From Escherichia coli (GTDB lineage: Bacteria; Pseudomonadota; Gammaproteobacteria; Enterobacterales; Enterobacteriaceae): a stretch of DNA of 64,000 nt. The position numbers are program-made. Location of the stretch: NCBI RefSeq assembly GCF_045037415.1, contig NZ_CP173438.1; one strand, written 5' to 3'. Of this stretch, positions 1-6,000 are shown one piece after another. Position 1 is the stretch's first letter. The number at the start of each line of letters is the position of its first letter.

Positions 1-3000
1 ATAGCGTACCACCTGAGATAAGGTACGGATCCTGAATGCGTACTGACCGGAAACCATACCAGGCAACAAATTTCTGTTCGCCAGTAAGTTATCCTGCCGG
101 TGCTGCATATTCTCCTCGTGGGGTATCCAGTGTAAATTAACGTAAGCGGAATGTCAGTGCTGAAATTTACACCAGATAAAAAACATACAGAAACAATCCT
201 GTTATGTAAAATCCGGGGAAAATATCAGAAATGTGATCGGAGTTGTATTTTTCGGAGGGGAAATGGAAAACAAACATCCGTATGGTAAAAAGGATGCTTC
301 CTGCGGAGTAACAATCCGGGACACAACGCAAGTTCCAGTTCAGGTGTTGTGAATTTGAGTAAAAATAATCGTAACTCTCCGGAGAACCGGAGCTTTCCCG
401 AAGCGGCGTATTCTTATAAATGGAAATCCCTGCAGGTAATCACTCTGCCCGATAGCAGCATAATTTGCCTGTTAATCCTCATCCCCGGAGGCAAGCTCTG
501 AAAACCACTCAGGGTGTTCACTGTATGCCACATTCAGCGCATCCCAGGAGACGTCCGCATAAAAACTGTCCCGCAATTTGCGGGTAACCACCTCTGCCAG
601 TCGGTTCCGGTTATCCGCCTGTCCGGCATAACCTCTCTCTGCCAGCCACTCATTCAGTTCATGTCCCAGAGACAGATTGATAAAATCGTAATCGGACCTT
701 GCCATTCCCGTTTCCTTTGCACATTTTTTTCAGACACGGGAATAAAGTATAAAAAGCGGCACTCTGCCCCTGTCAAGGTGAAATCTGCCCTTCATCGCAA
801 TGTCAGAGATGGTATGCCGGTATTTTGCGGGTTGTTCCCGTCAGGTTATCGCTCGCTTCCACGGACGTTGTCACCACCGGCATTCCGCTCTTTCTCAGTC
901 TCAGGATATCAGCCGCAATGCGCTGACTACCAGACCAGAACAGCCCGTCCAGTGCAGTCACCAGTAAACCGGCTTCCAGCGCATACTTCAGCCGTTCACG
1001 GGGCACTTTCACTTCCCGGGCAATCTGCTGATATGGCGATGATGTATTTTCATTCCCAACCATCCGGCGAATACGATGAGACAGATGATACCGGAATGTA
1101 TCCGGTACACCAGAAAGACTGGCCTTCAGGCTGTACACGCAGCCAAACCGTTTATCGTTGAACACCACATTTTTCTGGCTGAGGCCCCATTCTTCCCGAA
1201 GCGCGGCAATCAGTTGTGGTGTACGAGTAAGCAACAAGCGAAAAGGCAGTTCAAAACTGGTGACGTAATCCACATTCAGCAGGGCAATACGCAGCCGTTC
1301 TTCTGGTCCGGCCTCTGTCAGCCGACACTCCTCCAGAACATCCTGCCACTGCCGGCGAAGGCGTGGAGATTCATTCCGTTCGGTAAAAGAGTATTTATCC
1401 GCCAGATAGTCAATTCGTGTACGCATACTGAAGAGCATTCCGTATAAAGATTCAGCTGGCAAAACTTTATCAGTCCATAAAAATCAACGGAAGCGCAGAT
1501 GGTTCACACGTCCATTACCAACTGATTGTTGTCACAACCGGTAACACAAAGGACTGAACGACTGTTTTTAACAGCGGTGTTGCGTCATCCACCACCGTGA
1601 AACAACGCTGTGCAGGGAATCGTCCGCATCCCCATAACGGTCAAACATCGTGGCGTTGACAGAATGACCGACGAAAAGCCAGAAAGCGCTGATTCACTGA
1701 GCTGTAATCAATGTACAGCGCTGTACCGGACGATGGGTAATGGCGGTCACAACCGGTAACCCCAGAGACAATGCGACTGTTTTTAACGCAACATACTGAC
1801 CGGATGTATCACCCCGGGCAACCCGAAAACACCTTTCCACCCGGCATTGTCCGCCAGCACTTATCACCTGCCAGCTATGTTGCAGTAAATCCACCACTTG
1901 CGAACATTGTTCATCAACTGTGACACTGGCTCGCGGGTGACAAATACTCGTCTGGCTGAGCAGCAACAGGCATCGAATTGTTGCTCCTCCATGTTGTTCC
2001 CGCAACCAGCGTAATACCACCGACGATGATGGACTGGCAGTGTGATTGCTCTCAGTAATACGTTCATGCAGTTGTCGATAAAAGGAAGTGCAGAATGCAT
2101 GAATCTGTTGCCCGTAGATGTTTCCTTCTGTCGAATGGAGTATGAAGTGGACTGCCAGCAGACGCGGCCAGTGGTCAACAGCATGTTGAATAAAACGCCG
2201 GATGTCTCCCGGCTCTGAAATTAAGGCTTCGGTTATTTGCACGAAATGTTCCTTTTCAAACCCTGTTGAATTTTGTCAAACCGGTGCAGACACGCAGGAA
2301 AGCACGCCAGCACCGGTGTAATGCCAGTTATAATCAATAAGAATAGAATGACGAATCAGTCAGGAATAGCTATAACCTGCAGGCTGACTGGAGAATGTCT
2401 GCAAGAAGATGAACGTAAATGTCGCCAGCACCAGGGGCAGGGCCGGGTTCCACAATACCAGCGCTGGCATTTTGCACATTGCCAACGTACTGGCATCACA
2501 ACACGTTTCATGCTGCTGCTCCTCGTGATTCCTCAATTCGTTGTTGCATCCACTGCTCCACTTCACTTTTGTACCAGCGGCTGCTGCGCCCCAGTTTGAT
2601 GGGTTTAGGAAAATGCCCTTCACTGATCAGCCTGTAAAACCATTTATCGGTCATGCCGGTGAAACTGGTGATGTAGTTCATGTCGATCAGGGGATCGTCG
2701 GCACGCAGCCATACGCTGTCGTGGCTTGTTGTGGTCAACATGGTCAGAATGTCCTCAGTGAGATTTATGAAGAATGGGGTAATACGGGGAATGGGATGGC
2801 GTGCTGCTTTCAGCACTGCCAACCGGGATTGCCGGCAAGGCAACGGGCTTCCGGATCGCACACTCCACGGCGATCGCGGGCGAAATCACTGAACGCCCAG
2901 ATAAGGTCCTTAAACAGGGCTTCGCAGTCCGGTGACCGGCGATCCAGTACCACATCCCGGGTGATCTGCTTCTGGTACGGCTTTGCTTCACCTGGTGACG

Positions 3001-6000
3001 CGAAACCCAGCACATTACTCCAGGCATCCAGTATCAACCGATCCAGTTCGGGGCCGTCGAAATACTCCTGTCTGACGCACAGCACCACGTGGTATTCCGG
3101 CTTTTCCGGATGACGGGTCAGGAGCCAGCAAAGGTCGCGTCCGGGTTTCGCATTCATCAGCGCACTGACGGTTTCGATAAAATCCATACCAAACCAGGTC
3201 TGTCTGCTGTTGAAGGCGTTGTCATGTTCCCACGGCAGACGAAGCAGGATCCGCCGTATCCGTGAGCCGGACTGCTCACGCAGCGCACGCTCAAGGACGC
3301 CGATGACTTTGTTCTGATAAGATGGCCAGAAGGGTGCCAGGCTATAGTCGAAATAAGGAATAGCATTCATAAGATATGTTCCGTTATGCGCAGCCCACAA
3401 TGCGTCCTGCCCGTGAATGAGCTGACGTGTTATGGCTTGCGGATGAGATTGATGGAATAAGTGAAGAACCGGAGCAGAACGGGAAGACAAGGAACAAAAC
3501 ACCGGATGCAGGTTCAGGATGAATGATCTCCGTTGACTTCAGTTCACATCATTAATCAAGGCGGTAAGTTTTTACCGACGGAGTGTTTCCAGGAGCGAAG
3601 GCTCAGGCCTTAAGCTTCAGAAGTGAGGCTTACGAGGACGCCCTGCAGCAGGACGTTCAGGAACTTCATTGCAGCCGTAAGCACACAGCCCGTCTTTTTG
3701 CTCTTCTTTCGCCAGATAATGCAGGGCACCGCGAATATTATCGATGCTTTCAGGATCGTTGTGGCGCACAGGAATGTTGATGTTGTATGCATAATGCGGC
3801 TGATATGTACAGCGGTGCGCCGAACCACAGTTATACGTAATTGCCTGCCAGCATTCCGCTATCCGCTCCGCAAAGGGATATATTTTTTTAACCCTCTGAC
3901 GATCGATCCAGAAAACGACATGCGCATGAAAACCATGATCAGCCGTCCATTCAATCACCCAGAAGAAACCAACGATATTTTCAAATTGTTCCACCTGCTC
4001 CAGCAGCATACGCAACTGCAATTCAAGCCAGCGATGATCAGGTTGTAAGAAATCGGGCGTATCTTTCCTGTAGAAGAAATCCATCCGTAAGGCCCGCAGG
4101 CAGGAATAGCGTGCCATCATTTGATTGATGTGATTGTCAAGTAAAGCGGTAAAAAACCAGTTTGGTGTGTAAGATTTAGGCATGTTGATGACTCCTGAAA
4201 GTTAATGATGTTTTAAGCTCTGTGAGCGAATTAATGCTTTCGCTCATAATCAGATCTAAAACGGTAATAACTTACAGATGGTATTTATCAGGCATGCTGT
4301 AGCAGAATGGATACGACGGGTTATTAACGATACGCAGCATTATGCAGAAAGAAATGGATTATCTGATGGTATTAGCTAAAGAGATGAGATAAACGAGGAG
4401 CGAATAAAATACAGAATCAATAAACATCACGAAATACTGCAAAACACGCGATAAAAACCCACTACCAGGAGATTAAGAAACATATTACGACCAATAACAT
4501 CATAAACTACAAACTTGCTCTCAGTGAGTCTGAAAAAACGTGTACAAGGCCAACGCAATAAACTTATACGCCCTCATCCAATCTGTTCTTAAGGACATGA
4601 ACGTTAACCGCACACATTACCAGAGTAAAAAATACCACTGGCATGATTTTTACCCTGCATCTTAAACAATACAACCCGAAACAAACATAATCAGGTATCT
4701 CTCCTGTCAATTTCATTGTTTATCCAGCTCTGTTAATCGTTACAGAATCATGGATACCTTATCAAAGAGTAAACATCCAGTTAATCAGTAATGACAAAAG
4801 AATTGATGTTCATCAGAATAGTTAAAACACTTCAGATAAACAATTATCGTTAAGTAAATACAGTTCATGATGGATAAGATTAAAATCAATTACTGTTTCA
4901 GTGAAGACTGATAACAGATGAATATCATCAGTAGAATGGTAGAGGATAACTTATCTGAGTATCGTATGAATTACAGTAGTTATGCCTAATGAAGAAGGAA
5001 GTGGATATTATGATAATGGTGACAATGAAGATTAGACAAAGAAGAGTGTGAGTAAAGACAGAGTGAATATAATTATAGTAATAAGCCTAAATTAAAATTA
5101 TCCATGTTTAATGGGTAAAAATGAACAACTCTCCGTTCTGAATATATCCCTGACAGAACTGTTTCCTTACAAAAATTAGATAAATTCTTTCTTATTCAAA
5201 CCTGAACAACATCTTTTGTCAGCGACAGAAAATATGAACTATCTTTAAGCCACATCATTCTCCCGTAAAAAGGGAGTCGATGTGGCAAAATCATTAGTGC
5301 CCCTTAGCCAGATATTGTTCCATTTCTTCTTCCGGCACCATTCCACCTCCCGTCGCCCACACCAGATGAGTGGCATTACGCAGTTGTTCTGCGCTGAAAC
5401 CGTGCATCTGTTGGTAACTTACTGATGCGCACACGCGCTGAGGCCCGGCCATACCCGCCAGTGCCGATGGTTCAAGACGAATACCTTCTTCCTGCGCCAG
5501 CCAGCCAAGCATGTCATACATGGTTTGATCGCTAAGGGTATAGAAGCCATCCAGCAGACGCTCCATCGCCCGCCCGACAAAGCCCGATGCGCGACCAACT
5601 GCAAGGCCATCCGCTGCGGTAAGGTTGTCGATACCAATATCCTGAACAGAAATCTGATCGTGTAATCCTGTATGGACGCCTAACAACATACAAGGGGAGT
5701 GCGTTGGTTCGGCAAAAAAGCAGTGAACATGATCGCCAAACGCCAGTTTAAGTCCGAATGCGACGCCACCAGGACCACCACCAACACCACACGGCAGATA
5801 GACAAACAGAGGGTTATCAGCATCGACGATACGACCTTGCTGGGCAAATTGCGCTTTAAGACGCTGGCCAGCGACGGAATACCCAAGGAACAACGTGCGG
5901 GAATTCTCGTCATCAATAAAGAAACAGTTCGGGTCAGACTGCGCTGCTTTACGTCCTTCCTCGACGGCAACACCATAATCTTGCTCATATTCCACGACCG

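Follow-up and report, generated by a model that had tools for sequence, protein, structure and literature searches.

The 64,000-nucleotide (nt) stretch of Escherichia coli DNA studied here (contig NZ_CP173438.1 of assembly GCF_045037415.1; called the window below) holds part of an E. coli genomic island of the P4-integrase/AlpA type, a pathogenicity island of uropathogenic E. coli (UPEC) that adjoins cadC. Our subject is a set of three genes in it, coding for proteins of 243, 188, and 186 amino acids (aa), and a noncoding motif that occurs in two copies, one before the 243-aa gene and one between the 188-aa and 186-aa genes. We found that the conserved core of the island holds several very old and very divergent members of the HUH-type Gp2/YagK-YfjJ superfamily of replication initiator (Rep)-like proteins, and that the window represents a single backbone that recurs among strains and has its cargo slot behind a Gp2 gene, not two islands accreted here. 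The motif is a lineage-specific noncoding element under purifying selection in both of its positions, and its most likely role is control at the level of DNA. The explanation as a whole, in which Rep-like core genes and a cargo slot are combined with DNA-level control by the motif and with a non-catalytic 186-aa partner protein, has in our judgment about an even chance of being right.

RESULTS

One backbone with a cargo slot

Over its first 8 kb, the window is 100% identical to several chromosomes of UPEC and extraintestinal pathogenic E. coli, for example that of strain 4/0. The gene names used here are those of the RefSeq annotation of this strain, whose identity to the window was checked over positions 1 to 8000. 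In strain 4/0, the annotated order, which runs opposite to the numbering of the window, begins with a backbone running from a GTPase to the CbeA/CbtA module (GTPase, DUF932, antirestriction, RadC/JAB, DUF987, and CbeA/CbtA), followed by the 243-aa "inovirus Gp2 family protein," an Mrr-like endonuclease, nhaC, malY, and IS3. It continues with a choline-trimethylamine (TMA)-lyase microcompartment cluster, dsdCXA, the 188-aa "inovirus-type Gp2 protein," a 186-aa hypothetical protein, an AlpA-type helix-turn-helix (HTH) protein, a 182-aa hypothetical protein, and cdiBAI. The start of the island adjoins cadC, as does an integrase remnant, and the far side runs on to hlyCABD/cnf1. AlpA, the GTPase-to-CbeA/CbtA module, and the integrase remnant together place the window among the E. 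coli island backbones of the AlpA/P4-integrase (CP4-57-like) type. No tRNA gene was found inside the window, and the attachment site itself was accordingly not seen.

Three related elements (UTME-7, E272, and L025) have motif copy 2 no more than ~120 nt after the 243-type gene, and behind it come the 186-aa gene, alpA, and the 182-aa gene. BLAST showed that window positions 30197 to 31917 and 1751 to 3595 are contiguous in UTME-7; therefore, the 26.6 kb from 3596 to 30196 are absent there at a single point, as they are in the other two elements. The junction in UTME-7 falls within a 5- to 6-bp microhomology, CTTC(C)G. The absent segment comprises ~25 kb of cargo, an AT-rich stretch, and the 188-aa gene, and the cargo contains the Mrr-like endonuclease gene, transposase and psiE remnants, nhaC, malY, IS3, the cut cluster (the choline TMA-lyase microcompartment with cutC/cutD), and dsdCXA. 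In STEFF_1, the left junction is identical and other cargo (pseudouridine-utilization genes) stands before the 188-aa gene. In A27, an IS110 remnant and a YfjI-family gene form the cargo, and the left match stops ~80 nt earlier, beside the IS110 remnant. On the right-hand side, the conserved block begins near window position 5054 with ~0.9 kb of AT-rich DNA, after which comes the 188-aa gene. Among 5426 complete E. coli genomes, the block of 188-aa gene, 186-aa gene, and alpA was present in ~1537, often in several copies, and the direct junction of the 243-aa gene and motif copy 2 was present in 528. The layout of 243-aa gene, cargo, 188-aa gene, 186-aa gene, and alpA thus recurs with different cargo, and it is therefore one backbone with a cargo slot.

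At the two ends of the 26.6-kb segment (3595/3596 and 30196/30197), there is a short imperfect direct repeat, CTTCCG on the 243-aa side and CTTCG on the 188-aa side. STEFF_1 shows the left boundary again, and many BLAST matches stop there, which points to a preferred junction or to an old deletion at the microhomology.

More distant relatives share parts of this order. In the elements L022 and L024, AlpA is followed by a canonical Gp2 gene, a 186-like gene, and a UCP030791 gene (the family of the 182-aa protein), and in distant relatives the 186-like gene always stands directly after the canonical Gp2 gene and directly before the UCP030791 gene. In Enterobacter and Klebsiella, a divergently oriented GTPase gene precedes AlpA, a 188-type Gp2 gene, and defense cargo, in this order. 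AlpA and Gp2 are also present in a Serratia locus, in which no recognizable defense cargo was called. The relative in O157:H7 (L030) is a truncated pseudogene remnant and was uninformative.

Three divergent Rep-like proteins

Open reading frames (ORFs) of 230, 188, and 243 aa had been reported in the preliminary description of this DNA, and all three were found at the places given there, on the minus strand (2810 to 3502, from a GTG, for the 230-aa ORF; Table 1 for the others). For the 243-aa protein, the profile matches were significant, with 121.3 bits to PF11726 (cutoff, 25.8) and 38.4 bits to PF23343 (cutoff, 27.8). BLASTP gave 29 to 31% identity to YfjJ and YagK of K-12 (E values of 3e-27 and 4e-25, respectively). 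The protein carries an HYH motif (H101-Y-H103) and Tyr213, which are invariant in the alignment with YfjJ and YagK, and its weak PHROG matches were to replication initiation proteins.

The 188-aa protein scored slightly below both Pfam cutoffs (26.1 versus 27.8 bits and 20.5 versus 25.8 bits). Its family spans Enterobacterales; a 94%-identical member has both PF11726 and PF23343, and many relatives at 50 to 60% identity carry PF23343 and/or PF11726. When the family was compared with YfjJ, YagK, and the 243-aa protein by hhalign, the match was 93.5%, with an E value of 2e-7 over 164 columns. An HAH motif (H86 and H88) and Tyr156 are invariant in the family. On balance, these profile data indicate that the 188-aa protein is a divergent member of the Gp2/YagK-YfjJ superfamily.

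Ahead of the 188-aa gene, the ~0.9 kb of AT-rich DNA from ~5054 is 87 to 88% identical to the E. coli variants L018, L019, and L026, where it also precedes the 188-aa gene. No ORF of at least 60 aa was found within the stretch. In the window, the AT-rich DNA between dsdA and the 188-aa gene totals 1.1 kb (4184 to 5290), and it could contain an origin, a promoter region, or a noncoding RNA. In other islands, both the AT-rich DNA and the 188-aa gene follow a YfjI (DUF3987) gene.

The 230-aa ORF is over-extended, and the true gene codes for 186 aa. RefSeq places the start at the ATG at 3370, and the homologues are 188 to 191 aa long. The 45 extra codons of the longer ORF fall in an indel-rich spacer, in which the identity is 0.47 to 0.80, versus 0.85 to 0.97 in the coding sequence. 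The 186-aa protein itself had no Pfam match, and a 91%-identical homologue reached 11.9 bits. Comparison by hhalign of its family with YfjJ, YagK, and the 243-aa protein gave 96.7% with an E value of 4e-10 over 150 columns. A bridging homologue (P0199), found among 1.8 billion representatives, shares 33% identity with the 186-aa protein (E value of 2.5e-13) and matches PF11726 with 41.8 bits. The family is nearly confined to E. coli, with 2 distant full-length relatives in the same 1.8 billion representatives, of which P0199 is one. These comparisons point to a remote member of the Gp2/YagK-YfjJ superfamily.

The residues expected at the active site are replaced in the 186-aa protein. EYH stands in place of the HUH motif, and CYH and FYH are found in its distant relatives, so that the first histidine is Glu, Cys, or Phe; an invariant Asp162 aligns with Tyr213 of the 243-aa protein, the presumed nucleophile of catalysis. 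Y93, H94, and D162 are the invariant residues of the family. With the first histidine lost and the tyrosine replaced by Asp, the 186-aa protein is therefore probably a non-catalytic paralogue or partner. Its predicted model appears to have a Rep-nickase-like fold, in which EYH falls on a beta-strand and a helix carries the region of Asp162. No solved structure related by sequence was found. The 182-aa protein (UCP030791 type), whose gene lies downstream of alpA, is labeled as Gp2 family in some nr entries. Its hhalign match to the Gp2/YagK-YfjJ family was collinear and not significant, and its structural model was of low confidence; it is a candidate for a fourth and very remote paralogue of the Rep-like type.

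Pairwise BLASTP among the 243-, 188-, and 186-aa proteins was not significant. The 243-aa protein matched the other two with E values above 0.05, versus 1e-25 to 1e-27 for YfjJ and YagK, and the profile comparison between the 186-aa and 188-aa families gave no match. These data indicated that the three proteins are ancient paralogues, not recent ones. The preliminary description had assigned all three to the YagK/YfjJ family; this holds at the superfamily level and fails in the strict sense, since the 188-aa protein lies below the Pfam cutoffs and the 186-aa protein has no Pfam match. Internal duplication, which had been suggested there as well, found no support in the pairwise comparison, in which the copies were not closer to each other than to K-12 YfjJ and YagK.

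A conserved noncoding element upstream of two Rep-like genes

The motif pattern of the preliminary description, with its core AATGATGTGAA...TCAACGGAG, matched at exactly two places in the window (3525 to 3567 and 31038 to 31085), and it had no match in 100 dinucleotide-preserving shuffles. Alignment of the two copies gave ~85% identity over ~75 nt and a single indel of 5 nt. Copy 1 extends right up to the ATG of the 243-aa gene, whose Shine-Dalgarno (SD) sequence, GGAG (31041 to 31044), it includes. Both exact matches agree with the earlier claim that the motif precedes the 230-aa and the 243-aa ORFs; since the 230-aa ORF is over-extended, copy 2 lies ~150 nt upstream of the real start.

The two copies stand out from their surroundings in conservation. 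Copy 1 (31031 to 31125) has an identity of 0.91 to 1.0 over 7 elements, versus 0.4 to 0.8 farther upstream, and copy 2 (3529 to 3603) has an identity of 0.83 to 0.96 in 9 distinct haplotypes, versus 0.47 to 0.80 in the adjacent spacer. The same fixed differences between copy 1 and copy 2 occur in every element, so the copies are not being homogenized.

A 101-nt query of copy 1 matched 3184 places in 1894 of the 5426 E. coli genomes, with up to 7 places per genome, and among the matches listed these were always at a Gp2 family gene. When the exact pattern was scanned against 100,044 species genomes, it was found in one Enterobacteriaceae metagenome-assembled genome (MAG), in 2 copies, and at ~10 places in unrelated phyla that are chance matches. 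Neither the motif nor its palindrome (see below) was present upstream of yfjJ and yagK in K-12. With that MAG as the only match outside E. coli not due to chance, and with the motif absent before the K-12 genes and from distant relatives of the same gene order, the motif is therefore lineage-specific.

Nor is it a generic promoter element, in agreement with the view taken in the preliminary description: it has no sigma-70 consensus, and it is missing before the two K-12 genes. A scan for sigma-70 −35/−10 boxes with a spacing of 16 to 18 nt gave 0 sites in 2400 to 4600 and none inside 31031 to 31125. A terminator scan of the motif found nothing, and Rfam 15 gave no match to it, the sole match in the window being the ALIL pseudoknot described below. 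Manual comparisons with the consensus sequences for CRP, IHF, DnaA (DnaA box), sigma-54, and P2/P4 late promoters (TGT-N12-ACA) yielded partial matches only and were dropped.

At the position in copy 2 that is equivalent to the start codon, there is CTG or TTA. Within the first ~60 nt of the spacer after copy 2, 28 of 60 positions (47%) are collinearly identical to the 243-aa gene, and the identity then falls to ~25%; local alignment of the 150-nt spacer with the 243-aa gene was no better than with shuffles. Copy 1 abuts an ATG, and copy 2, with its CTG or TTA and the 60-nt similarity, thus looks as if a 243-type gene had been duplicated at its 5′ end, with later decay of the coding portion and continued constraint on the noncoding one. 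The first ~60 nt of the spacer (3371 to 3517) may be the coding remnant.

In the spacer, a semiconserved block at 3441 to 3468 (GGTTC..C..TTAT...CATCAA) repeats the motif box TTGAT.AATGATGTGAA imperfectly and in inverted orientation, and it is kept in both of the very different spacer haplotypes. Long-range pairing of copy 2 with the ATCAA part of this block was considered and rejected, as no compensatory changes were seen.

A palindrome common to the three leaders and a predicted hairpin in copy 1

Each copy of the motif carries a 16-bp palindrome, and a third lies before the 188-aa gene (Table 1). The pattern CNGTAA-N4-TTACNG occurs exactly at these three sites only in 64 kb, no more than 100 nt before the 243-aa and 188-aa genes and, for copy 2, in the leader of the 186-aa gene. 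When one mismatch was allowed, there were 6 matches versus 1.2 expected, and none of 100 shuffles reached 6. The palindrome in the leader of the 188-aa gene is kept in L018, L019, and L026 and not in other genera. The same leader has an inverted repeat of 7 bp, GAGCGAA-N8-TTCGCTC, at 4224 to 4245, downstream of the palindrome and ahead of the start codon; it too is kept, slightly changed, in these three variants.

RNA folding gave different results for the two copies. In copy 1, a hairpin is predicted in which both the SD sequence and the AUG of the 243-aa gene are base paired, with a minimum free energy of −24.4 kcal/mol and a z score of −3.65, and none of 200 shuffles was as stable. The fold is also predicted for the UTME-7 variant (z score, −2.83). 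Copy 2 folded no better than shuffles (z score, +0.23), and RNAalifold on the two copies found no common structure and no compensatory pair.

Coordinates and other features of the window

TABLE 1 Features of the window, with the evidence for each
Feature	Position	Strand	Basis or remark
182-aa UCP030791 (PF27752) protein	1694..2242	-	Always follows 186-type gene
AlpA-family helix-turn-helix protein, 77 aa	2508..2741	-	PF05930, E value of 3e-10; PHROG excisionase/transcriptional regulator families; RefSeq call
186-aa gene, probable degenerate YagK/YfjJ paralogue	2810..3370	-	EYH for HUH, Asp162 for Tyr
Variable spacer, wrongly counted into 230-aa ORF	3371..3517	-	Low conservation, large indels
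Motif copy 2, noncoding block	3518..3603	-	From ~13 nt past 188-aa stop to ~150 nt before 186-aa start
16-bp palindrome CGGTAA-N4-TTACCG in copy 2	3562..3577		
188-aa "inovirus-type Gp2"/REP_ORF2-G2P-type gene	3617..4183	-	Near-cutoff Pfam scores, profile comparison
AT-rich noncoding stretch, 29 to 40% GC, before 188-aa gene	4184..5054		Composition; conservation in other islands
16-bp palindrome CGGTAA-N4-TTACAG	4262..4277		~80 to 95 nt before 188-aa start codon
Cargo between 243-aa gene and 188/186/alpA block, ~25 kb	5055..30196		Absent in UTME-7, E272, L025
243-aa YagK/YfjJ-type (inovirus Gp2 family) gene	30299..31030	-	PF11726, PF23343, similarity to YfjJ/YagK
Predicted RNA hairpin in copy 1, pairing SD and AUG of 243-aa gene	31021..31078	-	Prediction only
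Motif copy 1, leader of 243-aa gene	31031..31125	-	Pattern match; homology with copy 2 over ~31031 to 31097
16-bp palindrome CGGTAA-N4-TTACGG in copy 1	31080..31095		

Several further observations were made in the window. The cargo (~5294 to 29970) is a patchwork of metabolic fitness genes with insertion sequence remnants between the blocks, and dsdCXA in it serves the use of D-serine. The ALIL pseudoknot (Rfam, 117.6 bits) lies at 24285 to 24401 on the minus strand and is the programmed-frameshift element of the IS3-family transposase in the cargo. An 82-aa hypothetical ORF of RefSeq at 31135 to 31383 on the plus strand is divergent from the 243-aa gene; it shows 0.4 to 0.8 identity among related elements, and it is doubtful because the region is poorly conserved. 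Finally, the RefSeq coordinates of the 243-aa gene in strain 4/0, when converted to the window, lie 8 nt above the ORF found (30299 to 31030), and this offset implies a small indel between the window and strain 4/0 somewhere between 8 and 30 kb.

DISCUSSION

Proposed role of the motif and of the Rep-like proteins

The motif would act on DNA as an operator or promoter-proximal control region near a non-canonical promoter. The 16-bp palindrome, present before the 188-aa gene as well, would place the Rep-like genes under one island-encoded DNA-binding protein, for which AlpA, another HTH protein of the backbone, or a self-regulating Gp2 protein are candidates. In copy 1, the transcript may in addition form an mRNA hairpin that hides the ribosome-binding site (RBS) and the AUG of the 243-aa gene, and copy 2 probably goes back to a duplication at the 5′ end of a 243-type gene, after which the coding part was lost to decay. 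Judged from their superfamily, the 243-aa and 188-aa proteins are probably similar to single-stranded DNA nickases or replication initiators, and the 186-aa protein is probably their non-catalytic partner.

Several points weigh against this explanation. Distant relatives in which the gene order is the same have neither the motif nor the palindrome, and neither is therefore essential to the module. No promoter was found in or near the motif by the sigma-70 scan, and neither an experiment nor a binding-site model ties AlpA or another protein to the palindrome. The enrichment of the palindrome was tested post hoc, and its distance to the start codon varies among the three genes (~50, 80, and 190 nt). 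The conservation profile rests on 7 to 9 distinct haplotypes, all from E. coli or the close MAG. For the proteins, a catalytic role of the HUH and Tyr residues in YagK/YfjJ proteins is extrapolated from the superfamily, and the literature search yielded no paper that characterizes YfjJ or YagK.

Alternative explanations

The motif could instead be an origin or a nick/termination site of Gp2-type HUH proteins, comparable to the double-strand origins of rolling-circle plasmids and filamentous phages, an idea that we consider unlikely. The neighboring genes appear Rep-like in family and fold, and the element stands directly before a rep-like gene, shows conservation at the DNA level with no RNA covariation, and has a small palindrome capable of forming a hairpin. 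In addition, the TTAATGATG core of the motif is loosely like known nick regions such as that of f1 (TTTAATAGTG), which serves as a lead only and not as a test. Two direct copies flank the variable cargo slot, and they might bracket a unit (243-aa gene, cargo, and 188-aa gene) that is replicable or exchangeable, a role to which we likewise give a low probability. The junctions of the cargo, however, do not coincide with the motif: one lies outside it, ~100 nt beyond the stop codon of the 243-aa gene, and the other lies at the upstream edge of the copy-2 block (3595/3596), outside the homology to copy 1 and in the microhomology CTTC(C)G. Moreover, wherever a nick site might be placed, the homology between the copies continues on either side of it; neither a circular nor a plasmid-borne form was seen, and distant relatives have the same genes without the motif. 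In its fullest form, with the copies as origin/termination sites, the DNA between them copied or swapped by rolling-circle-type strand transfer, and the 186-aa and UCP030791 proteins as specificity or regulatory partners, the idea seems to us highly improbable; if true, it would be a previously undescribed route of cargo exchange between genomic islands. A function of the motif as RNA, be it as a translational-control leader or as a target or template of a cis-antisense RNA as for plasmid rep genes, has an outside chance. The stable hairpin predicted over the SD sequence and AUG in copy 1, the similar fold of the variant, and the inclusion of the RBS of the 243-aa gene in the element are consistent with it. 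Copy 2 is the difficulty here, since it folds like shuffled sequence and its 3′ arm has decayed while its 5′ part is conserved; RNAalifold brought out no shared structure or compensation, variants in the 5′ arm are uncompensated in the candidate partners, and no Rfam family matched.

Two further alternatives concern the history of the copies, and each is in our view quite improbable. Copy 2 might be a functionless relic of partial duplication or recombination that resembles copy 1 through recency or gene conversion. CTG or TTA in place of the start codon, the following ~60 nt that look like decayed coding sequence (28/60 collinear identity), and the absence of the motif in relatives beyond this lineage would fit a relic. 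A relic would not be expected to stay 0.83 to 0.96 identical across haplotypes beside a spacer at 0.47 to 0.80 with many indels, and the differences between the copies, being fixed in every element, speak against ongoing conversion. The preliminary description had argued for the tandem accretion of two related backbones, or internal duplication, with each bringing its own YagK/YfjJ gene and leader. Such a history, to which we attach little probability, would account for the two directly repeated leaders and the several family members, and a YfjI (DUF3987) gene before the 188-aa gene in some strains is reminiscent of the alpA-yfjI-yfjJ order of CP4-57. Against it stand the proteins, which are no closer mutually than to the K-12 family members, the contiguity of the 243-aa gene with the motif/186/alpA block in 528 genomes, and the shared single-point junction. 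In addition, the full layout recurs with different cargo (STEFF_1 and A27), and RefSeq annotates one GTPase-to-CbtA/CbeA module only in 46 kb of strain 4/0, a stretch that covers the greater part of the island in the window. The shared layout may conceivably go back to an ancient fusion or duplication, and the region is a mosaic.

Significance

The backbone is among the commonest island scaffolds of E. coli, and it is combined here with virulence and fitness cargo, including dsdCXA, choline utilization, and cdiBAI, and further on hly/cnf1. For island biologists, the analysis provides handles in the form of a gene trio (an active-looking Rep-like gene, a dead paralogue, and a UCP030791 gene), a defined cargo slot, and a conserved palindrome-bearing element. 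In addition, the "230-aa" ORF receives a corrected gene model of 186 aa.

Comparison with known systems

The genes studied here are members of a named family, and the island type is already known. In K-12, yfjJ resides in CP4-57 and yagK in CP4-6, and the 243-aa protein resembles their products over its full length, with HYH and Tyr at the same positions. In contrast to the 243-aa gene, the two K-12 genes have no upstream motif and palindrome, and in contrast to the K-12 family, the 186-aa branch has lost the first histidine and the tyrosine. alpA stands beside Rep-like genes in CP4-57 and here, and so does yfjI in some strains; the order is alpA, yfjI, and yfjJ in CP4-57, whereas here it is Gp2, Gp2-like, and alpA. 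In the comparison with HUH initiators and nickases (parvovirus NS1, adeno-associated virus [AAV] Rep, SIRV1 ORF119, and the Reps of rolling-circle plasmids and phages), no solved structure gave a sequence match. As regards a rolling-circle double-strand origin, the motif contains a small palindrome, but the cargo junctions lie outside the motif.

AlpA/integrase islands in Pseudomonas have a core of RadC, YqaJ, HTH, and "inovirus Gp2-like protein" genes and variable, often defense-related cargo (bioRxiv 10.1101/2024.08.29.610337). As in the island studied here, AlpA, Gp2-like, RadC/JAB, and HTH genes form the core, and the cargo varies between conserved ends. The defense cargo of these islands has its counterpart in the Enterobacter and Klebsiella relatives, which carry such cargo directly after the Gp2 gene. 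The Pseudomonas islands differ in genus and integrase site, and the paper describes neither tandem catalytic and non-catalytic Gp2 paralogues nor a common upstream element. Three points thus appear to be new. The 186-aa "hypothetical" family would take its place in the Gp2/YagK-YfjJ superfamily as a catalytically degenerate paralogue, a canonical Gp2, a degenerate Gp2, and a UCP030791 protein appear to form a conserved trio, and a lineage-specific leader element with a palindrome common to all three Rep-like genes appears to have gone undescribed. Taken together, these are useful details on a known kind of element and not a new kind of system.

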